A stretch of 54,655 nt of DNA, from the sequence record MH706966. One strand, written 5' to 3'. This DNA is from Enterobacteria phage mEp021. Position numbers and translations under genes: made by a program. The notes beneath the pieces were generated by a model. That model had not been told where the DNA came from. It was given only the letters and a program-made list of their open reading frames with translations, and searched no databases. Shown here one piece after another: positions 16,516 through 53,028 of this stretch; the first letter of the stretch is position 1, and every line of letters begins with the position of its first letter.

Positions 16516-16614
16516 CATCGTGATTGCGATCACATAAATATACATTTTGTGTTGTGATCGCATATCCGTTTTGTAAACTGAAATCAAAAGGTTTACGGCA
16601 CGGAGGAAAACAAG

Positions 16615-16833
16615 ATGGCAAGCGAATTAATGCTTTATTGTGTTGAAGGTGGCGTGGGACATGATGCCTACGTCGCCGGGAAAAGCTATCCAGCAGATGA
16701 AGTGCTTTCTAATATGCACTTCCGGGAAAATGAAAACCAGGTGTCTGTGTGGAAGCGATGCGTTGATGGCATTGAGGTAGTTAGCCTCGAAAGATATTTG
16801 GGTAAATTTGACTACGCATTGATCGAGGCTTAA
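16615..16833 (+). CDS. Hypothetical protein (72 aa)
   Basis: SD cggagg upstream. Confidence 0.45.
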   Translation: MASELMLYCVEGGVGHDAYVAGKSYPADEVLSNMHFRENENQVSVWKRCVDGIEVVSLERYLGKFDYALIEA

Positions 16834-16931
16834 CTATGGACGAAACATTGCTATTCATGTGCATTTGCTGGGGTTTTATTGCCTTATGCCTGTTTATCAG
16901 GTGGTTTATTGAATACCATATGAGGTGATAT

Positions 16932-17126
16932 ATGGAACAGAAAACTGATTATAGAATACCTGACAACCTGAAGTTAGTTGGCATTGGTTTTGGTTGTCGT
17001 TTTGTATCTGACGCAAACGGGGCGATTTATTTAGTGCGCATCATTGATGGCGTTCAACATATAAGAAGGCTAGGACTTTACATCAAAGCATTTAGAAGAG
17101 GTTATTTGAAAACTCATGAAATTTAA
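16932..17126 (+). CDS. Hypothetical protein (64 aa)
   Basis: ORF with SD gaggtga. Confidence 0.4.
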   Translation: MEQKTDYRIPDNLKLVGIGFGCRFVSDANGAIYLVRIIDGVQHIRRLGLYIKAFRRGYLKTHEI

Positions 17127-17319
17127 ACAGTATAAAGAATGGAAGATTCCAGAAGAAGCGACAAAGGCAGCGCCCGGAATTTTTTCGGGCGTTTATTTTT
17201 ATATGGGCGGTAAATGGTATTTCGGCAGCAGGCCGGATCACTATTATCAAGAATTATGCAAATCTCACACATGGGACATTAATGAACGCGTGCAAGGCGG
17301 TGTAATAGACGAGGTTTAA
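17116..17319 (+). CDS. Hypothetical protein (67 aa)
   Basis: ORF overlapping its neighbours by a few nt. Confidence 0.4.
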   Translation: MKFKQYKEWKIPEEATKAAPGIFSGVYFYMGGKWYFGSRPDHYYQELCKSHTWDINERVQGGVIDEV

Positions 17320-17320
17320 A

Positions 17321-17557
17321 ATGATTAATGGTTTTTTAAGCTGGTTAAGAGTGTGGTTTTTTGCCACGCTTTTCGTTTTTTTGGCGTTCAGCGGTGTCAT
17401 TGTCATATTTACGCTGGCGATGATGTTCATTACATGGTCAGTACCTGAATTTAACAATCTTGGAAGTATTTTTGCTGTCGCCCGCGCCATGTTTGCTTGT
17501 AGCGCATTTGTTGGTTTTTGTTGGAGTGTTTCGCCTGATTGGGATGATGAATGGTGA
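17321..17557 (+). CDS. Small membrane protein (78 aa, two predicted TM helices)
   Basis: Hydrophobic segments FFATLFVFLAFSGVIVIFTLAMMFI and FACSAFVGFCW. Confidence 0.45.
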   Translation: MINGFLSWLRVWFFATLFVFLAFSGVIVIFTLAMMFITWSVPEFNNLGSIFAVARAMFACSAFVGFCWSVSPDWDDEW

Positions 17558-17561
17558 TCCT

Positions 17562-17795
17562 ATGGCCTTGTTCAATATGTCAGAACTGCAATTCAACGCC
17601 GTAAAAGCTGCCGCCCGCGCTGCACTTTCTGCTTGCAAAGCGGAGGTAGAGAAAAACGGCTACAGCGATAAAGCCACGCGGCTGATATTAGAAAAGCATT
17701 ATCGCAAGGTCGCCCCACTAATCAGCATTGAGCGCTTTGTGTGGTTGGTGGGGTATTTAAACAACCGTTGGGGGACGGAACAAGATTATTTCTAA
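17562..17795 (+). CDS. Hypothetical protein (77 aa)
   Basis: Internal ATG start chosen to avoid overlap with the upstream membrane-protein ORF. Confidence 0.4.
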   Translation: MALFNMSELQFNAVKAAARAALSACKAEVEKNGYSDKATRLILEKHYRKVAPLISIERFVWLVGYLNNRWGTEQDYF

Positions 17796-17804
17796 GGGGG
17801 CGTA

Positions 17805-18344
17805 ATGAAAAATGATTTTGGAGGCAGCCACACTCCTAAGGAAATTAAAGATCTATGGCAGACGCCTAAACCAGTTTTCAGAGGAATGGACCGCGAATTT
17901 GAATTTGTCGCTGACGTGGCGGCAAACAAGGAAAATGCGCTAGTTCCTCGGTATATAACCGAAGAAATGGACACGTTGCATTATCCGTGGGGAGCTGTGG
18001 CAATGCCTGGTGAGTATGTCTGGCTTAATCCGCCATATTCTAAACCGGGGCCATTCGTTGAGAAGGCGGCATTAGAACATCAACGAAATCACATTGGCTG
18101 TGTAATGCTGTTGCCCGCTGACATTTCTGTTAGCTGGTTTATGAACGGCGTGGATACGGCAAACGAATGCCGATTAATCACGCGCGGGCGGCTGGCGTTT
18201 ATCAATGCTGCGACTGGTAAGCCAGTAAGCGGAAACAATAAAGGGAGCTTGTTTTTGATCTGGCATCCACGGTGCAGACATGAATGTATTTTTACACACA
18301 TAACACGTAAAGAGCTATACGCAAGAGGTGCAGATAATGACTAG
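17805..18344 (+). CDS. dam: Phage-type DNA N6-adenine methyltransferase (Dam-like)
   Basis: 179 aa; WQTPKPVF...DVAANKENALVPRYIT...WLNPPYS pattern of the phage Dam family; SD aaggggg. Confidence 0.75.
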   Translation: MKNDFGGSHTPKEIKDLWQTPKPVFRGMDREFEFVADVAANKENALVPRYITEEMDTLHYPWGAVAMPGEYVWLNPPYSKPGPFVEKAALEHQRNHIGCVMLLPADISVSWFMNGVDTANECRLITRGRLAFINAATGKPVSGNNKGSLFLIWHPRCRHECIFTHITRKELYARGADND

Positions 18345-18834
18345 TGCAGCAGATTTACTACGAATCGCAGCGGAAACAATTGAGCAAAGAGGTAAACAAA
18401 ACGGCTACGACAGAAAAGAGGAAAAATCAGCGCCAAAAATAGCCACTATATACAACGCTAAGAAGGGCGCAAATTTAACCCCACTTGATGTATGGGATCT
18501 GATGATTTGTCTTAAGGAGGCGCGTTTAGAGGCTATTTTGGTTAATGGCAGCGATCCCACTGACACTTTGGTTGACCTAATCAGCTACAGCGCACTAAAA
18601 GCTGAGCAAATATTGAATGATCTGGATGAAGAGTTAAAGAAAAATCAGTTCACTGCCGCCAATATTAATGATGGAATAATAAATGACGCAGCAATAACAA
18701 GCTGTAAGGGATTGCCGCCTTCAATGCTTAAACCTCAGTGTGGCTGTATTTCAAATCGGCTTGATTTGAGTTTTGACAGATCTGAAGCTATTCGCGACAA
18801 GAGGTATGACCCAAATGAAAAAGGTGACAATTGA
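18337..18834 (+). CDS. Hypothetical protein (about 165 aa)
   Basis: ORF with SD aagagg; no motif recognised. Confidence 0.45.
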   Translation: MTSAADLLRIAAETIEQRGKQNGYDRKEEKSAPKIATIYNAKKGANLTPLDVWDLMICLKEARLEAILVNGSDPTDTLVDLISYSALKAEQILNDLDEELKKNQFTAANINDGIINDAAITSCKGLPPSMLKPQCGCISNRLDLSFDRSEAIRDKRYDPNEKGDN

Positions 18835-19318
18835 CAGGTTATTGGCCTGCGTTTATGTCGCCGTTTTCGTGATCATCAACCTAATTGTTAACCATTGCGG
18901 CCCGTGGGTGATTCCTATCACTACGGTAGCCGCTGTGTGTGTCAATATGATGATCCGCGACTTCCTGTTATATGACGGCGGTATCAAGTGGTCGGCGACA
19001 ACATGCGCCGCCGCTGGCGCAATCACTGTGCTGATAAATTACGACGCCGGAATGGTAGCGATCGCGTCATTTGTTGCGGTTGTTTCCGGTGCACTTATTT
19101 CTGGCGGCGTTTACCGGGTTTTACCTGGTGACTTTGATTCAAAACGATGGCCTGCAAATATAGCGTCAGCAATAGGCGATGCGTTGATTTTCCCTACGCT
19201 ATCGTTTATGGCATTCATGCCGGAAATATCAGCAATGCAATTCATATCCAAAATGGCGGCGGTAACGGTGATCACTATCATCATGCGCCGCTATTTTACG
19301 TTTGAGGGTAGAAAATGA
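18806..19318 (+). CDS. Multi-pass membrane protein (possibly VUT/YhhQ-like transporter; start uncertain)
   Basis: Four or five hydrophobic segments; loose resemblance to YhhQ-type proteins from memory only. Confidence 0.4.
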   Translation: MTQMKKVTIDRLLACVYVAVFVIINLIVNHCGPWVIPITTVAAVCVNMMIRDFLLYDGGIKWSATTCAAAGAITVLINYDAGMVAIASFVAVVSGALISGGVYRVLPGDFDSKRWPANIASAIGDALIFPTLSFMAFMPEISAMQFISKMAAVTVITIIMRRYFTFEGRK

Positions 19319-20073
19319 GCAGGGGTAAACATTGGTTTAATAATTGGCTTAGAAATTGGGTCGTTTGGTCGTTGTACGACGGCAGCGGGTACGCCGTCAA
19401 AGATTGGGCGGAAGCAGGATATAAGTGCTATTGCTTCAACTATGACGGCGCAAATCACGGCGATTATGAAGGCGTTAAAATCATTCATCCAAATATTGAA
19501 TACGTTAACGTATGGATTGACAGTCACTTCCTGGTGATGTTCTCGCCTGAACTGTCAGTTTACCCAGATCCTGATATTATCCTGGGCTTCCCGCCGTGCG
19601 ACGATCTCGCCGTGTCTGGCGCTCGCTGGTTCGCTGATAAACGGAAAAAAGATCCTGACTTCCAGGTGAAGGCGGCGAATAGCGCAAAACTGGTAGAAAA
19701 ACTGGCGGATATGCACAACGTGCCGTGGATGGTGGAAAATCCGGTGGGAGCACTGTCAACGCTATGGCGCAAACCTGATTTTATTTTCAACCCTTGCGCT
19801 TACGGTGGCTACCTGCCGGAAGACGACAAACATCCTGCTTTCCCTGATGTTTACCCTGCGCGCGACGCGTATACAAAGAAAACTTGCATATGGTGCGGCA
19901 ACGGATTCAAACAGCCGCTTTTTAGACCTGTAGATCTTAACTCTGGCGATAACCCTGGGTGGGCGAAAACAGGAGGCAGGACGAAACGAACAAAGATGAT
20001 ACGCTCACTAACTCCGCGCGGCTTTGCCCGTGCTGTATTCATGGCTAACCATGACCGCGTTTTACCGGACTGA
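19315..20073 (+). CDS. Small DNA C5-cytosine methyltransferase-like protein
   Basis: 252 aa; LYDGSGY (motif I-like), GFPPCDDLAVSG (PC motif, with PCD rather than PCQ), MVENPVG (ENV motif). Confidence 0.45.
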   Translation: MSRGKHWFNNWLRNWVVWSLYDGSGYAVKDWAEAGYKCYCFNYDGANHGDYEGVKIIHPNIEYVNVWIDSHFLVMFSPELSVYPDPDIILGFPPCDDLAVSGARWFADKRKKDPDFQVKAANSAKLVEKLADMHNVPWMVENPVGALSTLWRKPDFIFNPCAYGGYLPEDDKHPAFPDVYPARDAYTKKTCIWCGNGFKQPLFRPVDLNSGDNPGWAKTGGRTKRTKMIRSLTPRGFARAVFMANHDRVLPD

Positions 20074-20170
20074 AATTTACAAAATGGCGTCATTGCGTGA
20101 TGTGGATCACATAATGGCGCTATTCACCTTGTTCTGATGTATCCATTTTGTATACTTCAAACAAGCAAAA

Positions 20171-20183
20171 TGCTCTTTAAAAA
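20171..20183 (+). promoter_or_regulatory. Second boxA-like element (tgctctttaaaaa)
   Basis: 12 of 13 match to the boxA consensus tgctctttaacaa; intergenic, upstream of the nin-like genes and Q; no clear boxB hairpin. Confidence 0.3.
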
Positions 20184-20232
20184 TCCGGCAGCGCTGAAAT
20201 GCGTAGAAATCACCTGAAAAGGAGAGAGCATT

Positions 20233-20409
20233 ATGCCTTTTAATAATTACCAATGGCATGACGACTATGAACGAGAAAGCGTCATGCGTGCAATGTGCAA
20301 TGTATGCAGCACGAAGAAAGGAGACTGCAACGAGTGCAACGAATGTTTAGATCATTGGCTAAGGGCCGGACACGCCGAAAGGCTGAACGAAACAGAAAAT
20401 CAAAAATAA
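20233..20409 (+). CDS. Small Cys-rich protein (58 aa), possibly NinF-like
   Basis: Strong SD aaaaggagagag; CNVCSTKKGDCNECNEC; same size and position as lambda NinF; below the ORF-track cut-off. Confidence 0.45.
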   Translation: MPFNNYQWHDDYERESVMRAMCNVCSTKKGDCNECNECLDHWLRAGHAERLNETENQK

Positions 20410-20423
20410 TCGGGGTGATTTTT

Positions 20424-21029
20424 ATGCAGAACCCTAAAAAACCAATACGACGCCGTTGCAAATGCTGCGGCGTTTTTTTTGAGCCTAAATATCACAATCA
20501 AACGTGGTGCAGTGATGAATGTCTGGAAGAACTGAAGTTTGACCAGCTATGCCGCGACCGAGAAAAGGCTATGAAGGCTATGGAACGGAAGAAACGCCGC
20601 GACAGCCAGCGTGAGGAACGCAACCGGAAACGTAAACAGTTAAATCCGCGCAGCTACTGGATTAAACAGGCGCAAAACGTGTTTAACGCATATATTCGCG
20701 AACGTGACGCAGGACAGCCGTGTATATCTTGCGGGACTTATTATTACGAACAATGCGGCGCTGATGCTGGACACTGGCGCACAGTAGCGGCAGCCGGACA
20801 CCTTCGCTTTAACGAGGATAACGTAAACCTACAATGCCGACATTGCAATCAGGTATTAGACGGCAATGTAGAGTTATACAGAATAAATTTAATAAAAAAA
20901 ATAGGATTAGAAAGGGTGGAGGCATTAGAAAATAATAACGAGACTCACAAATGGACGATAGAAGAATGTAAGGAAATCATAAAAGTCTATCAGGCTAAAT
21001 TGGACGCCTTAAGGAGAAAGGCGGCATGA
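20424..21029 (+). CDS. ninG: NinG/Rap-family recombination protein
   Basis: RSYWIKQAQNVFNAYIRERD...PCISCGT...AGHWRT...LRFNEDNVNLQCRHCNQ...WTIEECKEI closely parallels lambda NinG as recalled; start at the internal ATG with SD cggggtga. Confidence 0.85.
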   Translation: MQNPKKPIRRRCKCCGVFFEPKYHNQTWCSDECLEELKFDQLCRDREKAMKAMERKKRRDSQREERNRKRKQLNPRSYWIKQAQNVFNAYIRERDAGQPCISCGTYYYEQCGADAGHWRTVAAAGHLRFNEDNVNLQCRHCNQVLDGNVELYRINLIKKIGLERVEALENNNETHKWTIEECKEIIKVYQAKLDALRRKAA

Positions 21030-21433
21030 ATGAATATTCTTTTAGCCTGCCTTACCCGCCATCGAACAATCGCTATTACCGACATTCTCGCGGTTTTCAC
21101 TATATTAGCAAAGTGGGGAAGGAATACAGGGAACAAGTAAGAGACATCATCGAGCTATTAAATTTAAACATCAACCTATCTTGCCGACTGGCAATAACTA
21201 TTCATGCCGCGCCGCCTGATAACCGGATCAGAGATCTGGATAATATCCCAAAATGCCTTTTTGATAGCCTTACTTACGCCGGATTCTGGACCGACGACGG
21301 ACAAATCGATTCTATAAAAATTGTTCGCTGCCGGAAGGTGAAAGGCGGGCGATTGTTTATTAAGGTGCGCGAGCGCGGCGACCTGTTACCGGATATTGGC
21401 GAATACGAAACTAATATATGGGGTGAGAAATGA
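21026..21433 (+). CDS. rusA: RusA-family Holliday junction resolvase
   Basis: 135 aa; LPYPPSNNRYYR N-terminal signature and conserved acidic residues. Confidence 0.8.
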   Translation: MNEYSFSLPYPPSNNRYYRHSRGFHYISKVGKEYREQVRDIIELLNLNINLSCRLAITIHAAPPDNRIRDLDNIPKCLFDSLTYAGFWTDDGQIDSIKIVRCRKVKGGRLFIKVRERGDLLPDIGEYETNIWGEK

Positions 21434-21612
21434 AAAACGAAATTAAAGATCTGCAAATAGATATTCAGCGCGACGAGCTTGATTTAGCTACAGTCAGGCA
21501 AATCCAGGCTTTCCACATGAGAGAATTGCTTGCGCTGAAAGAGCTTGAAAGAAAGTTGGTCCAGTCAATATCTGATCGCAAAAGACTGGTTGCGCGTTAC
21601 GGGGGTAAATAA
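21430..21612 (+). CDS. Hypothetical small protein (60 aa)
   Basis: ORF between rusA and Q. Confidence 0.35.
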   Translation: MKNEIKDLQIDIQRDELDLATVRQIQAFHMRELLALKELERKLVQSISDRKRLVARYGGK

Positions 21613-22334
21613 TGAATTTGGAATCTATTCTTAAATTCCATTTCCCAAAGTCACCGCGTTTGTCAGATGAAAGCCGTGGAACATCACCTGATGCACTTAA
21701 TACTACTGATGCACTAACCGCCGCAGGTATGGCGCAATCTCGCGTAGAGCTTGGATATAGCGCTTTTTTAGGGAAGATGGAACTATCACAAGCCGAAAAA
21801 CATAAGGCCGTAGTTTTGCTTATAGAGCGTTTAAAGGCTATGGCAAAAGATTATAAATACGTTATGGAACTGGACGAGGCACAACGCAATGATCTCATTA
21901 TTCTTGTTGCCGTTTTTGCGTTTCGGGATTATTGCCAGAGTGCCGCGACGGAAAAAACTTGCATGGAGTGCGGCGGATATAAATTTACGTTTGACGAATA
22001 CGGTGAAAAACACCTTTGTAAAAAATGCAAGGGGCATGGGACAGTTCGCAATCATTGTAAACAATGCAAGGGCCGTGGCGAAGTACCGGACAAAGCAGCC
22101 AGCGAAGCGACGGAAATGCCAGTATTCAAAACGTGCCAGCATTGCGGCGGGCGCGGTTACTCGCGTTTCCCAGTAGATCTTGTTCGGCAGGCGGTTAATC
22201 AGCTTGTTTTCCCTGTAAGCCGATCAACATGGTGGAAGAAATACAGGGTTTTCTATGAAGACGCCATAGTGGAGCTATTCAAAGAAGAATCTCGCGCGGA
22301 AAGCGAAATCAAACGAGTGACACGGGGTGAATAA
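21612..22334 (+). CDS. Q: Late-gene antiterminator Q (lambda Q family)
   Basis: 240 aa; N-terminus LESILKFHFPKSPRLSDESRG...AAGMAQS and Zn-finger CxxC...CxxC region parallel lambda Q as recalled. Confidence 0.7.
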   Translation: MNLESILKFHFPKSPRLSDESRGTSPDALNTTDALTAAGMAQSRVELGYSAFLGKMELSQAEKHKAVVLLIERLKAMAKDYKYVMELDEAQRNDLIILVAVFAFRDYCQSAATEKTCMECGGYKFTFDEYGEKHLCKKCKGHGTVRNHCKQCKGRGEVPDKAASEATEMPVFKTCQHCGGRGYSRFPVDLVRQAVNQLVFPVSRSTWWKKYRVFYEDAIVELFKEESRAESEIKRVTRGE

Positions 22335-22564
22335 TGGAGCTAAAAATCTGGCAGGCTATCGACGTTGTTGATAATGAATTGTCTATGTTCGCCACTAACG
22401 GGAAACGCGTTGTGATCGCTACATGGACTCGTAACCATGATGATATTGCTTTTCGTCGCGCGGCGGCGGAATTGCTTTTCTCTGATGGCGGCTACACGAT
22501 GAACATCGACCAGCTTGCAAGAATGAAAGATGAAAAACTGGTTGATAGCTACACAACTGCTTAA
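22334..22564 (+). CDS. Hypothetical protein (76 aa)
   Basis: ORF directly after Q. Confidence 0.4.
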   Translation: MELKIWQAIDVVDNELSMFATNGKRVVIATWTRNHDDIAFRRAAAELLFSDGGYTMNIDQLARMKDEKLVDSYTTA

Positions 22565-22574
22565 CGGGGTGAAT

Positions 22575-22808
22575 ATGCGTATCTATGAACACAAGCGGGA
22601 TAAAACCCGCTTTTTTGTTCGTGCTGGAGTGGCGTACCAGTATCACGAATGCGGTTACATTGAGGCGCTTGCTTACGATCTGGACTTCGAGCAAGAAAAG
22701 GAATGGTTCGATTTTAAAATTTACCGGAAGCGCAAACCAACGCGCGACGAGCGACACGCTATCCGTGACTTTTTAATCAGCATTGAACGTTGGGAGACAG
22801 AGGAATGA
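22575..22808 (+). CDS. Hypothetical protein (77 aa)
   Basis: Internal ATG with SD acggggtga. Confidence 0.4.
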   Translation: MRIYEHKRDKTRFFVRAGVAYQYHECGYIEALAYDLDFEQEKEWFDFKIYRKRKPTRDERHAIRDFLISIERWETEE

Positions 22809-23032: not shown

Positions 23033-23036
23033 CATC

Positions 23037-23499: not shown

Positions 23500-23571
23500 T
23501 TAATGTCACTTTCCTGGACGATGCGCGAAACAGGGGCCAAATGGCCCCATTAAACCAGAAGGGGTGGGATC

Positions 23572-23871: not shown

Positions 23872-23873
23872 TT

Positions 23874-24047: not shown

Positions 24048-24053
24048 CGACCT

Positions 24054-24230: not shown

Positions 24231-24295
24231 AGCCGTATTTGTAGAGCGTAAACAAACAGATTAAAATATTACCTAACAATGCGAAATTGTAATTA

Positions 24296-24322
24296 CCCGG
24301 CCCCGCGCCGGGTTTTTGCTTT
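24296..24322 (+). terminator. Rho-independent terminator immediately upstream of the lysis cassette (tR'-like by position)
   Basis: Hairpin cccgg-ccccgcg-ccggg followed by tttttgctttg; the holin SD and ATG follow within 20 nt. Confidence 0.6.
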
Positions 24323-37569: not shown

Positions 37570-37725
37570 TTTCTTATCCTCTTTGCTTCCTCCGGTTAAT
37601 CCGACCTTCTAAATCCCTTTACTCTATCCCTTTCCTTTAGCCTCTTTATACAAAATGTATTCGTTGAAGTGAAGCCATTTTGTATAAAATAGAGATCAGT
37701 ATCACACTTTTTACGAGGTTAAATC

Positions 37726-40126: not shown

Positions 40127-41461
40127 TTACGCGGCTTTTATAATTTCTTTATACTTATCTTCCACCATGTTAAAAACCTCTGGTCTGTAGTAGAAAAATT
40201 CGCAACTACCATCAAATTTTACTGGGAAGTTAATTTTGTAATTATTAAGGGTTTTGTGTATCGCGCCTTCTAGTTCATAGATATTTTGTGTCGGACCTTC
40301 TAATGTTTTTACGATATGCAAATCAGGAATCGTTACACCCGCTTTATGTGCGCTACTTAGTATTCTATTTCTTCGTTCGTTTTCCTTAACACTTACCCCT
40401 ACTTTCATTAGCGTTGGTACTTCCAGATCGTCAACCATGATATAAAGTTTGCCGCGTTCGTAGGATAAAAAACCCTTTTTAGCACATTTAGAACAGCCGC
40501 TACCTTCCTTAAGTTTTTGCGGCGTGGTTCGCCACTTATAACCACACACTTTACATAAACACGATACTTTGTTTTTATTCCCTGTTATTTTACCTACCAC
40601 TTTGATATTAGGGTTGATGTTGGCAATGGCTTTTACTTGCTCATCATGTGATATTCTTCGTGCTTGCGATCCTTTTCGTTTCGCACACTTCGGGCAACCA
40701 GTACCTTTTTTAAGGCTGGCTGGAGTAGTTAACCACTCATGACTGCAAGACTTACAGCGGCATAACGTTCTCGTAGTATTGTTAATAATTTTTTCTAATA
40801 CCTCAACGCTAGGACTGGTTTTCGCAATAACTGCAATTTGTTCTTCATGTGATAGTTTGGTGTGTCCGCTACATTTCGGGCAGCCAGTACCATGCTTGAT
40901 GTTGTTGGGAGTTGCTGGCCATTCATGATTGCAAATCTTACATTTGCATAATACTTTTTTTAAACTCGCAGATTAAAAGGGGTTTTATTCAATATTGCTG
41001 TTAACCTTCGCAATAGCTGCAACTTGTTCTTCATGCGTTAATCTTCTATCTGCGCATTTTGGGCAACCTTGCCCGATTTTAAGTGTTTCAGGTCTAGCCA
41101 ACCATTCATGATCACAAACTTTGCAATGGCATAATACCTTTGTTTTATTATTAATAATTACCCCTAACACCTTAATATCAGGATTAACTTTAGCAATAAT
41201 TGCAACCTGTTCTTCGTGTGGTAATGCCCGTTTTTGTGCTCTTTTTAACGCCGCACATTTAGGGCAACCAACACCGCGCTTAAGATCAGCAGGTCTACCA
41301 AACCATTCGTGATTACAAGTTTTGCAGCAGCATGATACTTTTTCCATATTCCCGGTAATTACCCCTATCACCTCGATATTGGGGTTAACTTTTGCAATAG
41401 CGGCAACTTGTTCTTCGTGTGTTAATTTTTTTGTCATAATACCGCTCCTACAATCTTCCAT
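40127..41461 (-). pseudogene. Disrupted paralog of the Zn-ribbon/GIY-YIG-like gene at 7737-9224
   Basis: A single reading frame of about 445 codons carries about five Zn-ribbon modules and an intact C-terminal GIY-YIG-like domain but is interrupted by two in-frame TAA stops (+ strand 40985-40987 and 40973-40975). Confidence 0.55.
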
Positions 41462-41976: not shown

Positions 41977-42146
41977 GATGCCCCTCCTTTGTTGGTACTG
42001 CTTTCTCTTCTTGCCTCCTATATACATCTTGTTACGTCATGTGTGAAGCCATTTTGTAAACTGGGTATAATTCTTGTGACGAAGTTCTCATTTTTCGCGT
42101 AGAAGCGCGTAAAGATGTATGCAATATGTAACTTATAGGGGGAATC

Positions 42147-43384: not shown

Positions 43385-43738
43385 TTATTTGCCATTAAAA
43401 CAGCCCAGGTTATCTATGCAGAAGTCTTTTGCCGCTTTTTCGTATTCGCGTTTTGCTTCCGGATCGTCAGCTGGAAAACCTTTTGCGTGTATTTCTCCAG
43501 GGCAAGATTGATCCATAGAATCAGCAAATTCAACATTGACGTTAAAGTTAATATCTTTCGGGTTCATCTCTTCCACCTTATCCGGTACTTGGACCGGAGT
43601 AATATCAAAATCACGATAGTTAAACCCACAGCGAAGTAATTCACGACCTTCATCACGCGCCGCAGCATATGTGTCAAATAGGCCCATGCGTTCCCATCCG
43701 CATTTATTAGTAAACACGTCTAAACTGTATTTTTGCAT
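43385..43738 (-). CDS. Hypothetical protein (117 aa)
   Basis: ORF in the opposite-strand island. Confidence 0.45.
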   Translation of the reverse strand: MQKYSLDVFTNKCGWERMGLFDTYAAARDEGRELLRCGFNYRDFDITPVQVPDKVEEMNPKDINFNVNVEFADSMDQSCPGEIHAKGFPADDPEAKREYEKAAKDFCIDNLGCFNGK

Positions 43739-43750: not shown

Positions 43751-43981
43751 TCATTTGACGGGTTCGATCTCGTACCCCAAAACGCGTTCGTCTTCAGCAA
43801 GTAAAAGCGCGTCAACCAGCGCATCGCCTTCATCTTTATACAGGGCCACAAGCATTTCCCTGCCATCAGCCAGGAACACCGTCAACCTCCACACCTTATC
43901 ATCCATCGCACACCTCCGCGCCATTTTGTTAACCCTGCTTCCTTTTGAGTACAATATACATATTGTAAAAAGCGCTATCAA
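43751..43981 (-). CDS. Hypothetical protein (57-76 aa)
   Basis: First gene of the opposite-strand island; acidic. Confidence 0.35.
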   Translation of the reverse strand: MIALFTICILYSKGSRVNKMARRCAMDDKVWRLTVFLADGREMLVALYKDEGDALVDALLLAEDERVLGYEIEPVK

Positions 43982-44033
43982 CCGTTTTGGTATGATTTAG
44001 CGTGACGTAGATCACAAATTGCAAGGTGATAAA

Positions 44034-44738: not shown

Positions 44739-44740
44739 TT

Positions 44741-45945: not shown

Positions 45946-45957
45946 TAGGGGGTTACA

Positions 45958-46524
45958 GTGAACTGGTCTGAATTGTTTGTTTATGATGAAGATTCTCCTT
46001 CATGTTTAAGGTGGAAAGTCACCGCTAACAGCAGAACGGCGAGGACTGGCGATGCGGCAGGAAAAATAGTAGCGGCAAAAAGCGGCAATAAGTACTGGAA
46101 AATCACATGGAAGGGCCGTCGCTATTATGCTCACCGGATTGTTTACGAATTATGCAGTGGCAGAAAATTAAAACGCAGTGAGATCATCGATCACATTGAT
46201 GGTAATGGGCTTAATAATAAATTCAATAACATACGCGTAACAGATAAAAAAGGTAACGCCAGAAATATGACCATAGGTCGCGCGACAAGGGAGAGCGGAT
46301 TGCCATTTGGGATATGTTGGCACGCAGAAGGGAGATCTATTAGAGCACGTATCACCGCTGATAACGACAAAAGAGTTAGTAAATCATTTAGCGTTATAGC
46401 GTGCGGTGGACTTGAAATGGCTATTAATGCCGCCGTCGCGTGGCGGTCATTCATGATTGAAGAGCTAAATAAAGCTGGCGCAGGATACACGAAATTACAC
46501 GAAACAGGGGGTTTATATGTCTAG
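45958..46524 (+). CDS. HNH homing endonuclease with AP2-like domain, inserted between I and J
   Basis: 188 aa; SEIIDHIDGNGLNNKFNNIRVTDKKGNARN HNH motif; GTG start with SD aggggg; paralog of 6080-6586. Confidence 0.7.
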   Translation: MNWSELFVYDEDSPSCLRWKVTANSRTARTGDAAGKIVAAKSGNKYWKITWKGRRYYAHRIVYELCSGRKLKRSEIIDHIDGNGLNNKFNNIRVTDKKGNARNMTIGRATRESGLPFGICWHAEGRSIRARITADNDKRVSKSFSVIACGGLEMAINAAVAWRSFMIEELNKAGAGYTKLHETGGLYV

Positions 46525-49500
46525 TGGCGGCGGTAAAGCAAAAACGCCAACTTTGCTTAATGATAATTTGTTTCATAAACAATTTTATCGGGTTTTAGAT
46601 ATTCTAAGTGAAGGACCAATTTTTGGAGTAGTTAACCAAACAGCGCCATTAAACAGCGTAATGCTTAATGACACGCCTATCACTGACGCAAGCGGAAACA
46701 CATCAGTCCCTGGCGTTAGCTTAGCGTGGCGTAATGGTACGGCTGACCAGTCACCAATCAACGGCTTCAACGCTATTGAGTCAACCGTTATTGTCAACGC
46801 AAAAGTAACTCACGACACACCAATAATCAGGACCATTTCAGATCCCAACGTTAACCGCGTAAGGCTGAATCTTGGCGTTGACTCTTTGGTAAGGTCAGAT
46901 GACAAGGGCAATCAATACAATACATCCGTTATGTTGATGGTTGATGTCAAACCTTCATCGTCATCAACGTGGTCACTGGTTAAAGATATTACTATTGGCC
47001 CAGGCAAACAAAGCGGTGAGTATCTAGAAGCCCACATTATCAACGCGCCGGATGAAAAACCGTTTGATATTCGCGTTCGTCGCGTAACGCCAGACAGCAC
47101 GGGAGATCTTCTTCACAATGATACCAGGTGGAGCAGTTACAGCGAGATAATCGATGATAATTTGTCTTATCCCCATACCGCTGTTGCTGGCGCGGTAATT
47201 GACCACGATCAGTATACTGATACGCCTACCCGCACCTATCATCTGCGTGGGCTGATTGTTGATGTTCCTGATAACTACGACCCGGAAACGCGCACGTATT
47301 CAGGATTATGGCTTGGTGGCTTTAAAAAGGCGTATACCAATAACCCTGCATGGCTTTTCCGGTATCTGGTTAAAAATGAACGTTTCGGGCTTGCCCGTCA
47401 TGCTGGTTACATTGATGTTGACGACGGCGCATTATATACGCTTTCTCAATACTGCGACCAGTTGGTTAGCGACGGATACGGCGGCTTTGAACCTCGCATG
47501 ACGCTTAATGCTTACATCACGGAGCAAATGAGCGCACGCGACTTACTTGATAACATTGCAGGCATGTTCCGTGGTATCGCGTTATGGGACGGGCAACGCC
47601 TTACCGTGATGATTGATGCACCACAAGATCCGATCGCCACCATTACAAATGCAAACGTCGTTGATGGCGCGTTTACTCGTTCAAGTATTGCCCGCGCAGA
47701 ATCTTACAACGCCGTGATTGTGTCATGGACTGACCCAGAAAACGGCTGGGAGCAATCAAAAGAATACGTGGCAGATGATGAATTGATCGCCCGCGACGGT
47801 TATAACGAAACAACGCTAGAGGCGTTCGGTTGCACGTCACGCGGGCAAGCGTACCGCGCTGGCAAATGGCTGATAGAAACGGCAAAACGCGAGCCATCAA
47901 AATTCACGTTTAAAATGGCCCGTGACGCAATTCACTTCACCCCCGGGGATATTATCGAGATACTCGACAATAACCGCGCTGGCGCTCGTTTAGGCGGCCG
48001 CATCGTGGCGAACAGTGGGAAGGTGATAACGGTAGACAAGGTTGATTCTGAATATATCGCGGCTGGTGACACTATCAGTTTACTTGATAGTGATGGCAAG
48101 TTTAAAAAACACCAGATCACCGGAGTTAACGGAAACAACATCACCCTTGCAACCGCCCCCGCATGGATTCGTAACGGGACCGTATTCGCTGTGTCAACTG
48201 AAGCGGCAAAACCTGTTCTGTGTCGAATTATCAGCGTAGCAGAAACAGAAAATAACAGCGTGTACACCATCGAGGCAGCACAACATGACCCACACAAACA
48301 GGCTGTAGTTGATGAAGGCGCAATCTTCGAGGTAAACAACGACACGCTTAATCACTTCCGCGTGCCGAACATTGAAAATCTGAAGGTGTTAAACGTTGGT
48401 TCTGAAACTGTTCAATGTCGCGCTACATGGGAAACACAGACGACAACGCATCGCCTGACCTTTGAAATACGCGTATATAACGCCGAAGGCCGCGTGGTGG
48501 CAGCTTATGAAACAACGAATTACCGCTATGATTTTTATGGCCTCGATGCTGGCAGCTACACACTTGGTATTCGCGGTCGTAATGACACTGGCATGAAGGG
48601 GGCGGAAAGTATTGTTGACCTGGTTATTGGCGCGCCAGCGGCCCCAATTGGAGTTAATTGGGTTCCCGGCGTTTTCCAGGCAACAGTATACCCGATCAGC
48701 AAAACAACACTGACAACTGATACAGCATACGAGTTCTATTTCTCAGGTGAAAATCAGATCACTGACCCATCAAAAGTAACAACTTTGGCGCAGTTTACCG
48801 GGCGCGGCTATCAGTGGACTTTTGGCGGAATGAACACGGGCCATACCTATTACGTTTATGTCCGCACACGTAACGCTTTTGGTGTGTCAGATTTCGTTGA
48901 GTCATCAGGAAAACCAACTGAAAACTTCGATGAAATTAGCGACTACGTCACCAAAGACGTGATTAACTCAGAACAGTTTAAAGGGATGATTAGCGACATT
49001 AAAGATCTTGGCGACCGCGCCGACCTTATCGAAAGCGCTACAAATGACCTTAAAACTGCTACCGACAACCTCAAAACTGCAACTGATAACCTGACAAACA
49101 TCACTGACGATTTAATGGTTGACACTGACAACCTGACAAACATCACTGACGAATTGAGGACTGATACGGACGGCTTAATCACAGAAACAGGGGCCATAAA
49201 AGCTGATACGGACACACTGAAAAAACAAACGGAAGATCTTTATAAAAAGGTTGGGGAAAACGCCGATGATATTGGACAGCATGAGGCAAGAATAGATTCA
49301 CTGGAGGTATCTAGCGAAAAAGTTGGCAGTGAACTTGCGCAAGCAAAAGCAAGCCTGCAAAACGCGTCATTGGCGCTTATCAATAACTCACTTGCACAGA
49401 CTAACACTCGCGTAACTCTTACCGCTCAGTATAAGAAAGGCAGGACAGAGACGAAGGCTGAAATTGACCGTATTGACAACGTTATTGCTGAAGAGAAAAA

Positions 49501-51700
49501 GGCAACGGCTGAATCACTGGAAACCATCACGGCAGAAATGAACACGATGGATTCTAACCTTAAAGGTCAGATCTCAAGCGTGGAACGCGCAGTGGCTGAC
49601 GAGGCCAGCGCACGCGCAGAAGCCATTAACGGTGTGAACGCATCAATAAGCAATCTAGACAAGAAAACAGACGCCAGCATCAATAGACTTGATCAAGCTA
49701 TTGCAGACGAAACGAACGCCCGCACACAGGCAGTCAGTGACGTTAACGCGAGTATCTCATCGCTAGACAAGAAAACTGACGCCAGCGTTAAACGCTTGGA
49801 TCAAGCAATTGCAGACGAAACCAGTGCAAGAACTGAAGCTATCAGCGGCGTGAACGCATCAATTTCCACTCTTGATAGCAAGGTAACAAGCAATGTAACG
49901 CGCATAGATAAAGCTATTGCAGACGAAACGAAGGCACGCACTGACGCAATCAGCGGCGTTAATGCAAGTATTAGCACACTCGAAGGCAACACCAATTCAG
50001 AAGTGAAACGCCTTGATCAAGCAATAGCTGACGAGACTAGTGCCCGCACACAGGCTATCAGCGGTGTAAATGCTTCGATAAGCAATCTTGAAAGCAAAAC
50101 TGACGCGAGCGTTTCCCGTCTTGATAAAGCAATATCAGATGAAACGCAGGCAAGAAGTGCCGCAATAACAGAGGTTAAAGCTGATTTGTCAACGCTCGAA
50201 AATAGCACAAACGCCAGCGTTAAACGCCTTGATCAGGCGATTGCCGACGAATCAAGCGCACGCGCTGAAGCAATATCGGGCATCAACGCAGAGATTGGCA
50301 ACATTGAAAATAATGTTGACAAAAACAGCGATGATATAAATCAGACAAAAGCAAGCCTGCAAAACGCGTCTATCGCGCTTATTAACAACTCAATCGCTCA
50401 AACAAACACGCGTGTTACGCTTACGGCCCAATACAAGAAAGGCCGCAAAGAAACCAACGCGCAAATTGACCGTATTGACAATGTTATCGCTGAAGAGAAA
50501 AAGGCTACAGCGGAAGCGGTTAGCGTGGTAAAAGCATCGATCACGGATCTTGATAAGAAGACTGACGCGAGTGTTTCCCGTCTCGACAAGGCTATCGCAG
50601 ACGAAACAAGCGCACGCAGCGAGGCTATTAGCGGAGTAAATGCCTCAGTGTCAGCGCTAGACAAGAAAACGGATTCAAACATAAGCCGTCTTGATAAAGC
50701 CATTGCAGATGAGACAAGCGCAAGAACTGAAGCTATCAGTGGAGTGAATGCAAGTATTATCACTCTTGAAAGCAACACTGAATCTGAAGTTGGCAGGCTG
50801 GATCAGGCAATTGCCGACGAATCAAGTGCCCGCGCCCAGGCTATAAGCGGAGTGAACGCATCAATTTCCACTCTTGATAGTAAGGTGACAAGTAACGTAA
50901 CCCGTATTGATAAGGCTATTGCAGACGAAACGAAGGCACGCACTGACGCGATAAGTAGCCTTAATTCATCGCTTACCAGTACGATTAATTCGAAAGTGTC
51001 TGAAGTATCAACGGCACTTTCTACGCATGAAGCATCAAGCGCTGAAAAATTTAGCCAGATCTCTGCGTCTTTCGAATCTGTAAACTCAAGTATTACAGAA
51101 TGGTCACAATCTATGGCAACGGCTGACGAGGCATTGTCAACCAAAATTGATCAGTTAACAGTAACCGTTAACGGTAACAAAACGGCGATCGAGACGACAT
51201 CGAATGCGCTAACCGATTTCAAGGGTAACGTTGATGCGTCATATTCAATCAAGCTCGCCACCGATAACAACGGCATGAAGTACGCGACAGGTATGTCGCT
51301 TGGCCTGACTGGTAACGGCACAAACTTTCAATCGCAGTGTATTTTCCTCGTTGACCGCTTCGTGTTAATGACCTCAGCAAACGGCACATATACAACACCT
51401 TTCTATGTCACCAATGGTGCGATGTATGTGAAAGAAGCGTTTATTAAAGACGGATCGATCGATACTGCAAAAATAGCGCAGCAAATCCAGTCAACTGTAT
51501 TTGTTCAAGACTCAAAAGGTTGGATGATTAACAAAGATGGATGGGCGCAATTCAACGAAGTTACTGTAAGGGGTAACGTCATTGTTAAAGGCAATCAAAA
51601 TTTCGATGTACGCAATAGTGACGGACGGGTAATTATTAACAATAATGGCATTACAGTAAATCTTCCTAGTGGTGGTAAAATTATTATCGGTGTTTGGTAA
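46517..51700 (+). CDS. J: Central tail fibre / host specificity protein J, expanded by internal repeats
   Basis: 1727 aa; N-terminal about 800 aa parallels lambda J as recalled; about 13 copies of a 33-aa repeat in the centre; lambda-J-like distal region retained. Confidence 0.9.
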   Translation: MSSGGGKAKTPTLLNDNLFHKQFYRVLDILSEGPIFGVVNQTAPLNSVMLNDTPITDASGNTSVPGVSLAWRNGTADQSPINGFNAIESTVIVNAKVTHDTPIIRTISDPNVNRVRLNLGVDSLVRSDDKGNQYNTSVMLMVDVKPSSSSTWSLVKDITIGPGKQSGEYLEAHIINAPDEKPFDIRVRRVTPDSTGDLLHNDTRWSSYSEIIDDNLSYPHTAVAGAVIDHDQYTDTPTRTYHLRGLIVDVPDNYDPETRTYSGLWLGGFKKAYTNNPAWLFRYLVKNERFGLARHAGYIDVDDGALYTLSQYCDQLVSDGYGGFEPRMTLNAYITEQMSARDLLDNIAGMFRGIALWDGQRLTVMIDAPQDPIATITNANVVDGAFTRSSIARAESYNAVIVSWTDPENGWEQSKEYVADDELIARDGYNETTLEAFGCTSRGQAYRAGKWLIETAKREPSKFTFKMARDAIHFTPGDIIEILDNNRAGARLGGRIVANSGKVITVDKVDSEYIAAGDTISLLDSDGKFKKHQITGVNGNNITLATAPAWIRNGTVFAVSTEAAKPVLCRIISVAETENNSVYTIEAAQHDPHKQAVVDEGAIFEVNNDTLNHFRVPNIENLKVLNVGSETVQCRATWETQTTTHRLTFEIRVYNAEGRVVAAYETTNYRYDFYGLDAGSYTLGIRGRNDTGMKGAESIVDLVIGAPAAPIGVNWVPGVFQATVYPISKTTLTTDTAYEFYFSGENQITDPSKVTTLAQFTGRGYQWTFGGMNTGHTYYVYVRTRNAFGVSDFVESSGKPTENFDEISDYVTKDVINSEQFKGMISDIKDLGDRADLIESATNDLKTATDNLKTATDNLTNITDDLMVDTDNLTNITDELRTDTDGLITETGAIKADTDTLKKQTEDLYKKVGENADDIGQHEARIDSLEVSSEKVGSELAQAKASLQNASLALINNSLAQTNTRVTLTAQYKKGRTETKAEIDRIDNVIAEEKKATAESLETITAEMNTMDSNLKGQISSVERAVADEASARAEAINGVNASISNLDKKTDASINRLDQAIADETNARTQAVSDVNASISSLDKKTDASVKRLDQAIADETSARTEAISGVNASISTLDSKVTSNVTRIDKAIADETKARTDAISGVNASISTLEGNTNSEVKRLDQAIADETSARTQAISGVNASISNLESKTDASVSRLDKAISDETQARSAAITEVKADLSTLENSTNASVKRLDQAIADESSARAEAISGINAEIGNIENNVDKNSDDINQTKASLQNASIALINNSIAQTNTRVTLTAQYKKGRKETNAQIDRIDNVIAEEKKATAEAVSVVKASITDLDKKTDASVSRLDKAIADETSARSEAISGVNASVSALDKKTDSNISRLDKAIADETSARTEAISGVNASIITLESNTESEVGRLDQAIADESSARAQAISGVNASISTLDSKVTSNVTRIDKAIADETKARTDAISSLNSSLTSTINSKVSEVSTALSTHEASSAEKFSQISASFESVNSSITEWSQSMATADEALSTKIDQLTVTVNGNKTAIETTSNALTDFKGNVDASYSIKLATDNNGMKYATGMSLGLTGNGTNFQSQCIFLVDRFVLMTSANGTYTTPFYVTNGAMYVKEAFIKDGSIDTAKIAQQIQSTVFVQDSKGWMINKDGWAQFNEVTVRGNVIVKGNQNFDVRNSDGRVIINNNGITVNLPSGGKIIIGVW
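49560..50960 (+). repeat. Coding tandem repeats within J (about 99-bp units) plus a roughly 1-kb segmental duplication
   Basis: Repeat unit ...DASVxRLDxAIADETSARTEAISGVNASISxLDxKT...; the linker gcaagcctgcaaaacgcgtc... occurs at about 49345 and again at about 50350. Confidence 0.8.
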
Positions 51701-51740
51701 CCACTGTTGCCCCGCCAAATGGTTGGGGCAACTAATTTTA

Positions 51741-52685
51741 TTAATAAATTACTGGCAAATAAGGAAGATTCATACCTATACAGAAATCCGGCCTGTTACC
51801 TATTTCATACCTGACAATCCTTGATCCTGTTCCGCTTTTCACCTGCCCGTTGTACATCATAATGCCTTTGTATCTTAGTTCCTTGTATGCTGATATAGCT
51901 CTAGTATTAAAGCCGCATCTCAATATTGGGAAGAACGCGTCACCTATTGTCTGGTAACTATTCGATAACGCTATAAATCCCTTAACAACCAATGGCCTTT
52001 GTTTTGTTGAAAACACGCATTGATTATTTTTATTAATGATGGTTATTCCGTCGCCAGGTGATGGCGGTGATTTGCTAAAAATAGCCAAATTCATCGTTAC
52101 CGATCCATATGTGTCACCAGTTGCAGAAGTGTTTGTGTTTGTACAGATCAATTTATTGTTTCCGTCAAACTCAACTGAAACACCGCTATTGCTCCAGTTA
52201 CCGAAAGGAACACCGGCAACTGGCATAGTGTAAGAACCATTAAAGCTAACACTCCCAACCCATAAACATGACATCAATGTATCGTTAGTCGTTATCGATG
52301 CAAAATCTGTGCTATCTGCAACTAATATACCCTCACCAGTAGACGCCTTTGCTATCTCAAACACGCTACCGCTAAAATTAGTGATCCTATCAGAATATGC
52401 GTTCTCACCACTAATTGAAATCCTTGCCGTGCCACCAGAAGCACTAAAGCCTGATATAAAATATGTTTCAACACCCCTGTCAAGCTCAAACGCGTAAGCG
52501 CCTACCTTTGGGATTAGAAACTTATCGCCGCCAGTTAAATCCTTTATGGAAAAACTTTGCGAAAACCCAGCATTTTGAATATTGAAATCTCCAGCGTGTG
52601 AGAACGCACGCAACCCGCTTGTTATTTCCATTGCAGGGCGTCCGTCATTCAGCCCAATATATATACCCGCCCCCATTAGTACCAC
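51741..52685 (-). CDS. Hypothetical Gly/Ser/Thr/Asn-rich protein (314 aa), opposite strand after J
   Basis: Long ORF; beta-rich composition; no motif recognised. Confidence 0.5.
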   Translation of the reverse strand: MVLMGAGIYIGLNDGRPAMEITSGLRAFSHAGDFNIQNAGFSQSFSIKDLTGGDKFLIPKVGAYAFELDRGVETYFISGFSASGGTARISISGENAYSDRITNFSGSVFEIAKASTGEGILVADSTDFASITTNDTLMSCLWVGSVSFNGSYTMPVAGVPFGNWSNSGVSVEFDGNNKLICTNTNTSATGDTYGSVTMNLAIFSKSPPSPGDGITIINKNNQCVFSTKQRPLVVKGFIALSNSYQTIGDAFFPILRCGFNTRAISAYKELRYKGIMMYNGQVKSGTGSRIVRYEIGNRPDFCIGMNLPYLPVIY

Positions 52686-52894
52686 TCCTTACTTCCGCAA
52701 TCTCTAGTCTTGCCACTATGACCATCAGTGCCATCATAAACGCGACAGATCTCACCGGACGGAACCTTAGCCCCGTCAACCCATCTTTCATAGCAGACAC
52801 CGTATGCGCTAGTTGCACAATGGCCGTTGTGTCGATTAGTGTCAGCGCAACCAACCAGAATAGCCGCAACAGCGATAATTGTTACCATTTTCAT
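52676..52894 (-). CDS. Small Cys-rich lipoprotein (72 aa), moron
   Basis: MKMVTIIAVAAILVGCADTN... signal peptide with lipobox LVGC; six Cys; SD ggggtg. Confidence 0.55.
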   Translation of the reverse strand: MKMVTIIAVAAILVGCADTNRHNGHCATSAYGVCYERWVDGAKVPSGEICRVYDGTDGHSGKTRDCGSKEWY

Positions 52895-53028
52895 TAGTAC
52901 ACCCCACTCAGATTGTGTGTATTTGTTGCTTTGTTTATTATAATATACATTTTGTATAAGCATAAAATGCAACATAGATCACAAAATGGTAGAATTATTC
53001 CGTTAATTAACATAATGGAGTCATTGCG

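Follow-up and report, generated by a model that had tools for sequence, protein, structure and literature searches.

What are the two short sequence boxes that recur in the intergenic spacers of Enterobacteria phage mEp021, whose 54,655-nucleotide sequence (record MH706966) constitutes the window analyzed here? The window shares 97-99% identity with Escherichia phage mEp515 and matches a 1450-bp GenBank fragment of mEp021 at 100%, and by its sequence the phage is a temperate coliphage of the mEp021 group (mEpimmI), a Nus-dependent, non-lambdoid group described in 2025 (PMC11893012). That description treats Rep021, a CI-like repressor, Gp17, an N-like protein, three nut sites (with nutR2 placed downstream of gp32), integrases, receptors and exclusion lipoproteins. 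Promoters, operators or repeats of the box type do not appear in it, and the motif strings returned only unrelated primer matches from the literature. An initial annotation of the window had noted the boxes and suggested either a shared promoter/operator design or a recombination linker at which cargo was inserted. The account that we lean towards, with slightly better than even confidence, is that the boxes would be recurring parts of one family of compact divergent sigma-70 promoter/operator modules.

The box strings quoted in the initial annotation were all present where reported, and a motif search of the window against a shuffled background placed them well above expectation, with 12 matches to CATWTTGTA compared to 1.65 expected (none of 100 shuffles reached 12), 5 to GATCACAWAA compared to 0.40, and 4 to TACAWWWTGTA compared to 0.22. 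The generalized form CRWWHTG(G)TAnnnn was found 38 times, compared to 16.8 +/- 4.3 expected. An exact 16-bp repeat, gtgaagccattttgta, was confirmed at 37669-37684 and 42043-42058, and tagatcacaaa is exact at 52975-52985, with a second copy at 44008-44018, one base from the position first given for it (44007-44017). By our reading of gene starts and stops, 9 of the 12 exact CATWTTGTA copies lie in true intergenic spacers; those at 2378 and 30125 are coding, and in relatives that have no homing endonuclease the copy at 6065 makes up a core gene's 3' end. A crude mechanical mask of open reading frames (ORFs) left 5-8 of the 12 outside ORFs, where 7-18% of the window lies (P ~1e-3). Further copies, absent from the initial annotation, were found on the minus strand at 11927, 12609, 20078, 37649 and 52980, as a variant at 11080-11093 (minus strand), and as degenerate leftward forms at 42019-42031, 43953-43965 and 52942-52954, and several of the newly found minus-strand copies pair divergently with those already noted. 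The boxes also extend beyond the cargo junctions, to the surroundings of P_L, P_RM and P_R and to a position just upstream of nutR2. Both boxes, which had been thought to recur together, are real and enriched, but they are not independent, as GATCACAAAATGG is the reverse complement of CCATTTTGTGATC.

The arrangement of box 1 resembles that of a promoter. As had been proposed, the boxes overlap or abut -10-like hexamers: CAWWWTG directly precedes a TAnnnn hexamer, and TA follows every box except E1 box 1, which has TG in the window. The parts at P_R, in the early region (modules E1 and E2) and at four tail-gene junctions (J1 to J4) are listed here; the suffixes L and R below denote leftward and rightward elements.

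11923..11966 (+): candidate P_R; TATACAAAATGG (11925-36), A, TTGACT (11938-43), 17-nt spacer, TATATT (11961-66); read leftward, its box is CCATTTTG-TATACT (hexamer 11928-11923).
16519..16579 (+): module E1, about 29 nt upstream of the ATG at 16615; palindrome (16519-34), palindromic box AATATACATTTTGTG (16537-51), half-site TGTGATCGCA (16553-62), box CCGTTTTG-TAAACT (16566-79).
20078..20204 (+): module E2, promoter plus nutR2; leftward box (20078-86), palindrome with extended arms (20085-20121), TTGTTC (20129-34), 16-nt spacer, CCATTTTG-TATACT (hexamer 20151-56), then nutR2 boxA GCTCTTTAAAAA (20172-83) and boxB (~20191-204).
37645..37706: J1, between Lpp-type cargo and the tape measure gene; candidate leftward promoter TACAAAATGG, C, TTCACT (37673-68), 17-nt spacer, CATTTTG-TATAAA (hexamer 37650-45); rightward box CCATTTTG-TATAAA (37675-88).
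42019..42132: J2, between cargo and gpM; candidate leftward promoter TTCACA (42047-42), 17-nt spacer, CAAGATG-TATATA (hexamer 42024-19); rightward CCATTTTG-TAAACT (42049-62) and TATAAT (42066-71); hairpin CGCG-TAGAAG-CGCG (42096-109); third box at ~42117-32, TATACAAAATGTAAC in relatives.
43950..44016: J3, between cargo and gpL; palindrome TACAATATACATATTGTA (43950-67); candidate leftward promoter TTGATA (43981-76), 17-nt spacer, TATATT (43958-53); rightward extended -10 box CCGTTTTG-G-TATGAT (43982-96).
52942..52995: J4, between cargo and the tail fibre gene; palindromic box AATATACATTTTGTATAAG with leftward TATATT (52947-42) and rightward TATAAG (52955-60); extended -10 box CAAAATG-G-TAGAAT (52982-95).

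In P_R, J1L, J2L and J3L, the reverse complement of box 1 in its CC-form, ACAAAATGG, lies just upstream of the opposite promoter's -35 hexamer, at about -45 to -37, and these four have in common the plan ACAAAATGG - N - TTSAYW - ~10 nt - CAWWWTG - TATAWW. Because ACAAAATGG directly precedes the opposite -35, the 16-bp repeat GTGAAGCCATTTTGTA can be read as a leftward -35 hexamer plus the ACAAAATGG element. The palindromic copies TATACA-WWW-TGTATA at J3, J4, E1 and 12609 amount to two -10 elements pointing apart. In a sigma-70 scan, P_R (TACAAAATGG-A-TTGACT-17-TATATT) and J3L (TTGATA/TTGATC-17-TATATT, the top promoter match in 36-54.6 kb) each reached 10 of 12 consensus positions, followed at 9/12 by the leftward box at 11935; J1L (...GG-C-TTCACT-17-TATAAA) and J2L (...GG-C-TTCACA-17-TATATA), scored separately, have 9/12 as well. 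A -35 hexamer matching at least four of six positions accompanies 7 of 22 boxes, compared to a background of 12.6% (P = 0.016); J1L, J2L, J3L, P_R and the box at P_L match well, whereas most of the rightward boxes at the junctions match poorly. Box orientation agrees with the downstream genes, and the estimated 5' untranslated regions are 27-31 nt for four rightward promoters and ~70 nt for two with nutR2 or a nut-like hairpin. The box at 20144 precedes nutR2 boxA by 15-20 nt, giving a putative promoter-plus-nut unit. A T at position 6 is present in the hexamers TAAACT, TATACT, TATATT, TATGAT and TAGAAT, and lacking in TATAAA, TATAAG, TAAAAA and TATTAA. In several promoters, inverted copies CAAAATGG ... 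CCRTTTTG bracket the -35 hexamer, and these could constitute a protein site.

Box 2 belongs to a longer element. The sequence GATCACA makes up the right-hand arm of the 16-bp palindrome YGTGA-N6-TCACA, and GTGA-N6-TCAC occurs seven times in the window compared to 0.71 expected. TAGATCACA is identical to the right half-site of the E. coli CRP consensus (AAATGTGATCTAGATCACATTT), and the module palindromes match the CRP core TGTGA-N6-TCACA at 8-10 of 10 positions. They are listed below with this match and with the distance from the palindrome centre to the first base of the other promoter's -10 hexamer.

11072-87: TGTCAGCAAGTTTACA, P_L/P_RM region.
11126-41: TGTGACTTGCATCAAA, P_L/P_RM region.
16519-34: E1, CGTGATTGCGATCACA, 9/10; 47.5 bp (to E1 box 2).
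20096-111: E2, CGTGATGTGGATCACA, 9/10; 47.5 bp.
37691-706: J1, weaker, palindrome-like, AGAGATCAGTATCACA, 8/10; 48.5 bp (J1L).
42075-90: J2, weaker, palindrome-like, TGTGACGAAGTTCTCA, 9/10; 58.5 bp (J2L).
44001-16: J3, CGTGACGTAGATCACA, 9/10; 50.5 bp (J3L).
52968-83: J4, weaker, palindrome-like, TGCAACATAGATCACA, 8/10 (9/10 in relatives, TGTAAC...ATCACA); 28.5 bp (J4L).
Relative mEp554: seventh module, perfect TGTGATAAAGATCACA, 10/10; 48.5 bp upstream of TG-t-TATATA.

Among some 40 group relatives from IMG/VR, our comparison sample from a group only ~10% diverged overall, the palindrome arms are fixed and the N6 is free, with 13 variants at E2, 13 at J3 (over two classes) and 10 at J2; fixed arms around six variable central bases are what characterizes the binding site of a protein dimer. 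Between the -10 of one promoter and the start of the palindrome there are 1-7 bp (J1R 2, E1L 2, J2R 3, J3R2 4, J4R1 7, mEp554 1), the leftward E1 hexamer being TATATT, and by this spacing the palindrome covers the predicted start point of that adjoining promoter. The corresponding centre-to-hexamer distance is 49.5 at lacP1 and 29.5 at galP1. With start sites estimated as hexamer end + 7, which leaves a scatter of +/- 2 bp, the site centres fall at -59.5, -59.5, -60.5, -60.5, -62.5, -70.5 and -40.5, and CRP-dependent promoters have theirs near -41.5, -61.5 and -71.5. The distances are suggestive of compatibility with CRP class I/II positions, and a geometry in which one dimer would repress one promoter and activate the other is only suggestive because the start sites are estimates.

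Box positions 0-9 are 94-100% conserved in the relatives, compared to 80-92% for the flanks. The J2 TATAAT is invariant, and box variants CATTTCGTA and CATTTTGAA appear at J2 in a few genomes. Beside the conserved modules, the relatives carry 8 cargo types at J1, 6 at J2 and 3 at J3 (an empty site being counted at J3), with the J1 module conserved in 35 unique relatives next to its 8 types. One relative (L026) has lost the J3 cargo and kept the module, and another (L020) has a plus-strand gene in place of the J2 module, indicating that this module is not essential for gpM. The cassettes have the attributes of morons: they lie between core genes, vary among relatives, and carry leftward promoters (predicted, 9-10/12) and factor-independent bidirectional terminators (37001-18 and 42702-22). 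In the group relatives (~1.6 Mb), CATTTTGTA occurs 2.2-3.5 times per 10 kb, compared to no copies in 645 kb of more distant phages sharing gpM; no J1 module was found outside the group, IMG/VR matches falling only in mEpimmI contigs, and the J1 region was found in 21 of 5426 complete E. coli genomes, with GN05505, N921 and N1286 among the strains that carry the prophage. Within the J3 cassette, two leftward cargo genes (43724-43738, 43916-43932) have the identical start context GGTTAACAAAATG, and because of this context the matches to CCATTTTGTT are opposite-strand start codons and not boxes.

Taken as divergent promoter/operator modules, the boxes would work as follows. CA(W)3TG with the abutting TAnnnn would form the -10 region of a sigma-70-type promoter, and the palindromic TATACA-WWW-TGTATA would be two such regions in opposite directions. 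In a second role, ACAAAATGG would sit upstream of the opposite -35, where the proximal subsite of an A-tract UP element would lie. The YGTGA-N6-TCACA palindrome would be bound by a dimeric protein, most simply host CRP with cyclic AMP (cAMP), in a repressing position over the start of one promoter and in a class I/II activating position ~48-50, 58.5 or 28.5 bp upstream of the other -10. At the four tail-gene junctions, the modules would drive leftward, variable cargo and restart rightward transcription into the next structural gene, and in the early region one module would stand directly upstream of nutR2. What the sequences show is that the boxes exist, are enriched and conserved, have the geometry described and stand beside variable cargo; that they act as promoters, which protein binds them and which way they regulate are inferred. 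The promoter/operator half of the initial proposal is supported by hexamer adjacency, flanked -35s, co-orientation, 5' untranslated region distances and, for box 2, fixed arms around a variable spacer. A more specific version, which we regard as a speculative and rather unlikely elaboration, is that each junction module would be a conserved 'expression socket' working as a one-site toggle, a single dimer of CRP or a CRP-like protein blocking the rightward promoter (near +4) and activating the leftward cargo promoter (near -61, -71 or -41); cargo would thereby be expressed in lysogens under cAMP control, and the early copies, including the nutR2 promoter and a possible gpM nut, would tie lytic transcription to the same signal.

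Several observations weigh against divergent sigma-70 modules. About half of the hexamers lack the position-6 T that is normally critical in a -10 element, and many rightward boxes have -35 hexamers of only 2-3/6. A canonical extended -10 is present only at J3R2 (TG-G-TATGAT), J4R2 (TG-G-TAGAAT) and the 22.6-kb site of mEp554 (TG-T-TATATA); in the other copies TG abuts the hexamer and does not lie at -15/-14 as in an extended -10. A general sigma-70 scan gave no overall excess of promoter-like sites (26 compared to 29.7), and the boxes at 6065 and 12611 and the third J1 and J2 boxes are too near a Shine-Dalgarno sequence to make sense as promoters. The candidate late promoter after Q (24238-24266) lacks a box, and a Q-modified polymerase would have no need of rightward restart promoters. 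The CRP positions depend on start sites set at hexamer end + 7, operators of a repressor would be an equally good reading of the CRP-like sites near P_L and P_RM, and the E2 palindrome, directly after a stop codon, forms a stable RNA hairpin (-21.3 kcal/mol, z = -5.5). Host RNA polymerase alone also leaves the lineage-specific conservation of CCATTTTG unexplained.

This last point leads to the strongest alternative, on which a phage-encoded DNA-binding protein, Rep021 or a small protein, binds the boxes, alone or together with the palindrome as an 11-bp half-site CCATTWTGTRA, so that genome-wide sites loosely like L5 stoperators would control every promoter. We consider this possible and not probable. 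The motif is specific to the lineage (0 copies in the 645 kb of distant relatives), CCATTTTG is conserved beyond the needs of a polymerase spacer, the sites are co-oriented with local transcription, and both arms of the E2 palindrome extend to YCATTRYGTGA, which exceeds the requirement of CRP. The immunity region carries further sites.

11080..11107 (-): candidate early leftward promoter (P_L) of box type; TTGATC (11107-11102), 16-nt spacer, TAAACT (11085-11080), after CCATTCTG, in whose place most relatives have the form CCATTTTGTAAACT; box ~70 nt upstream of nutL boxA.
11077-11048: second leftward candidate promoter; CTGACA-18-AATGAT with TG.
11126..11141: TGTGACTTGCATCAAA, overlapping the -35 of the candidate leaderless cI promoter; present in 42 relatives with only 3 variants.
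11132-37 and 11155-60 (+): candidate P_RM; TTGCAT, 17-nt spacer, TAGGGT; a start at or next to the A of the cI ATG would give a leaderless cI mRNA, as in lambda.

With five box-like copies around P_L, P_RM and P_R, and with two CRP-like sites, one overlapping the P_L -10 and the other the P_RM -35, this region keeps a phage factor a live rival; the top conserved block at P_R, conserved in 35 unique relatives, consists of the box plus the -35. Against such a protein, no YGTGA-N6-TCACA is found at P_R, where a repressor operator is required, and the 9-11-bp box is too short or too asymmetric for a dimer of the lambda CI type, with which Rep021 aligns. The same boxes stand on leftward cargo promoters, which are expected to be active in lysogens, and Pfam showed no other helix-turn-helix protein among 20 early ORFs; a phage-encoded CRP/FNR-like protein was rejected on the same search, which gave only SSB, Dam and domains of unknown function (DUFs). 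Covariation between repressor and operator is uninformative since all 41 relatives share one CI (93-99% identity). A palindrome at 12164 was rejected as an operator because it is not conserved. The candidate P_R transcript would have a ~340-nt leader (11974-12318) with no Cro-like ORF before gp17, and no obvious Cro gene was found in the immunity region.

It is considerably less probable that the elements act in RNA, the boxes as A/U-rich leader elements near Shine-Dalgarno sequences (translation enhancers or binding sites) and the palindromes as hairpins serving as stabilizers, terminators or boxB-like sites. A box or half-box does lie 5-12 nt upstream of a Shine-Dalgarno sequence at 6065, 12611, J1 (GATCACATTTTGTATGAGG in relatives), J2 (TATACAAAATGTAACTTATGGGGG) and J3, the E2 palindrome folds as strongly as stated above, and J2 has a conserved 10-pair hairpin with a purine-rich, boxB-like loop. 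However, divergent pairs in both orientations place half of the boxes outside the relevant transcript, many boxes are 45-100 nt from a start codon, no stem showed compensatory changes, Rfam gave no matches, and the recurrence of GTGA/TCAC arms at independent loci indicates that sequence, rather than shape, is what matters. The E2 palindrome extends to ~37 bp (GGCGTCATTGCGTGAT GTGG ATCACATAATGGCGCT; 20085-20125). It comes directly after the stop codon of the 19315-20073 gene, ahead of the nutR2 promoter, and could serve both as a protein site and as a terminator or processing hairpin. In the putative gpM leader (42086-42113), TCTCATTTTT is followed by the conserved hairpin CGCG-UAGAAG-CGCG, an arrangement resembling the boxA/boxB of nutR1 (GCTCATTAACAA ... 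GCCGC-UGGAAGU-GCGGC); in relatives the stem is invariant and the loop variable, with no covariation, and the arrangement may add a fourth nut-like site to the three already published.

Passive recombination linkers for cargo exchange, the other half of the initial proposal, are the least probable reading and very unlikely overall. In their favor, the cargo next to the modules comes in 8, 6 and 3 types, J1 and J2 share 16 bp of identity (up to ~55 bp at 80%), and the breakpoints of the mosaic are located 5-25 bp to the left of the leftward box. Against them, no cargo common to different junctions was found (the ~55-bp module being the sole cross-junction homology), boxes stand at P_L, P_R and nutR2 without any insertion there, and the box in front of the helicase gene is independent of the homing endonuclease gene. 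Orientation, hexamer adjacency, -35 partners and constant start-codon distances would be superfluous for a linker, and L026 retains its module without the J3 cargo.

A number of other candidates were set aside. Promoters for sigma-32, sigma-S, sigma-28, sigma-E and sigma-54, compared by eye, have unsuited spacing or key bases, and of the other consensuses considered, neither those of host factors (IHF (WATCAANNNNTTR), LexA, DnaA, OmpR, GntR/HutC-type and LacI-type half-sites) nor P2 Ogr TGT-N12-ACA and lambda CII TTGC-N6-TTGC were consistent across copies. A Q-binding element was rejected on the candidate late promoter after Q, which has no box, and an L5-type stoperator on the location of the copies at promoter hexamers, as divergent or palindromic pairs. 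The copy at 6065..6073 (-), CCATTTTGTAA, upstream of the helicase gene, was likewise rejected as a homing endonuclease target, since it occurs whether the endonuclease gene is there or not. In mEp554, where that gene is missing, it forms the last codons and stop of the upstream core gene, and it is probably not a promoter. Compared to mEp554 (L003 5311-5340), a homing endonuclease gene (6080-6688) is inserted between this core gene and the helicase gene, and a core-gene remnant (..PEFSIL stop, CCATTTTGTAA) persists downstream of the insert. The head region of mEp515 has an extra HNH gene that is not in the window.

The modules were compared with known systems. A moron, as defined in HK97 and HK022, is an additional gene that stands between core genes and is equipped with a promoter and a terminator of its own. 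Like lambdoid morons, the cassettes here are opposite-strand units between tail genes, absent or different in close relatives, each with a sigma-70-like promoter (predicted) at its upstream end, plus terminators. In contrast with them, the promoter is not part of the moving unit, as the conserved module stays and the cargo behind it changes, and back-to-back with it stand a promoter-like element for the rightward direction and a palindrome of operator type. The similarity to E. coli class I/II CRP promoters (lacP1, galP1, malT) lies in the 8-10/10 core, the free spacer, the weak -35 hexamers and site centres estimated near -41, -60 and -71; unlike in those promoters, the phage sites also lie over the opposite promoter's start, their flanks (CCATTW) are conserved beyond the needs of CRP, and an FNR-type TTGAT-N4-ATCAA occupies the equivalent place in some relatives. 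As an observation on J4, many relatives (L009, L014, L017 and others) have an exact FNR-consensus palindrome, TTGATATAAATCAA, directly after the leftward -10 hexamer, where the window (~52920-52945) has unrelated sequence.

Lambda P_R/P_RM offers a further parallel, with back-to-back overlapping promoters, ~57 bp between estimated starts, and a palindrome that would be placed to repress one promoter and possibly help the other; the phage unit, in contrast, occurs in at least six copies, in the early and the late region alike, whereas the lambda pair is confined to the immunity region, and its operator resembles a host-factor site. Stoperators of mycobacteriophage L5 are asymmetric 13-bp repressor sites, many of them, in intergenic spacers, and the box is likewise a short asymmetric motif with many intergenic copies genome-wide, co-oriented with local transcription; unlike stoperators, the copies lie at promoter hexamers and in divergent pairs, not as elongation blocks inside operons, and a link to the repressor is unsupported. 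The proximal UP-element subsite is reportedly AAAAAARNR at -46 to -38, from work on rrnB P1. In our own alignment to this consensus, ACAAAATGG at -45 to -37 matches 6 of 8 specified positions; unlike an UP element, it is not a pure A-tract, and the same bases would double as the -10-proximal region of the opposite promoter.

For orientation, the remaining features of our gene map are as follows.

186-1400: integrase.
Leftward: replication operon.
11167-11814: cI, ATG at 11167.
12318-12608: gp17 (N-like).
12609..12619: palindromic box TACAAAATGTA, directly after the gp17 stop codon; a rightward start would fall inside the next gene's Shine-Dalgarno sequence.
21612-22334: Q-like antiterminator.
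37726: start of the tape measure gene.
42147: start of gpM.
44034: ATG of gpL.
46517-51700: J.
53029: ATG of the tail fibre gene.

Inside the 3' end of gp17 (12575-12620), GGGGAAAAACCCC forms a boxB-like stem with an A5 loop, into which the leftward box CATTTTG-TATTAA (12617-12605) points, and it is conceivable that this box gives rise to a short RNA antisense to gp17. Just before the lysis genes, ~1.9 kb downstream of Q, a candidate late promoter without a box (TTGTAG, 17-nt spacer, TAAAAT) is followed by the hairpin CCCGGCCCCGCGCCGGG and a T-run, a candidate terminator (24238-24320). The replication O-like gene contains a repeated 45-bp unit (10227-10314) with a 23-bp sub-repeat, GGTTGCTCTCTGCCACTACCCCC, and by their sequence these repeats look like origin iterons. 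A 495-aa leftward ORF (7737-9224) carries ~5.9 tandem copies (8091-9214) of a 183-186-bp unit, THEEQ..AIAKVNPDVEVLGE..KKVLCRCKVCDHEW, in an array that is shorter in mEp515. The same unit is found in the cargo ORF 40985-41461, where two copies of the repeat module are present (40900-41461) and which is annotated as HNH Gp2.8/7.7-like in mEp515.

The elements themselves (promoters, an UP-like tract and a CRP-type site) are ordinary in kind; it is the repeated divergent module as a proposed fixed site of cargo expression that is new for this phage family. As mEpimmI was proposed as a new family only in 2025, and its transcription map is blank besides the repressor, the N-like Gp17 and three nut sites, the boxes would add to this map some twelve candidate promoters together with six or seven putative operator sites. 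Should the modules work differently from what we propose, the lineage-specific conservation of CCATTTTG would point to a phage DNA-binding factor. If they work as proposed, they would account for the expression of opposite-strand cargo cassettes inside the late operon and for the use of the same four junctions as hot spots for different cargo, and the catabolite control of the host would extend to lysogenic-conversion genes and to an early promoter linked to a nut site.

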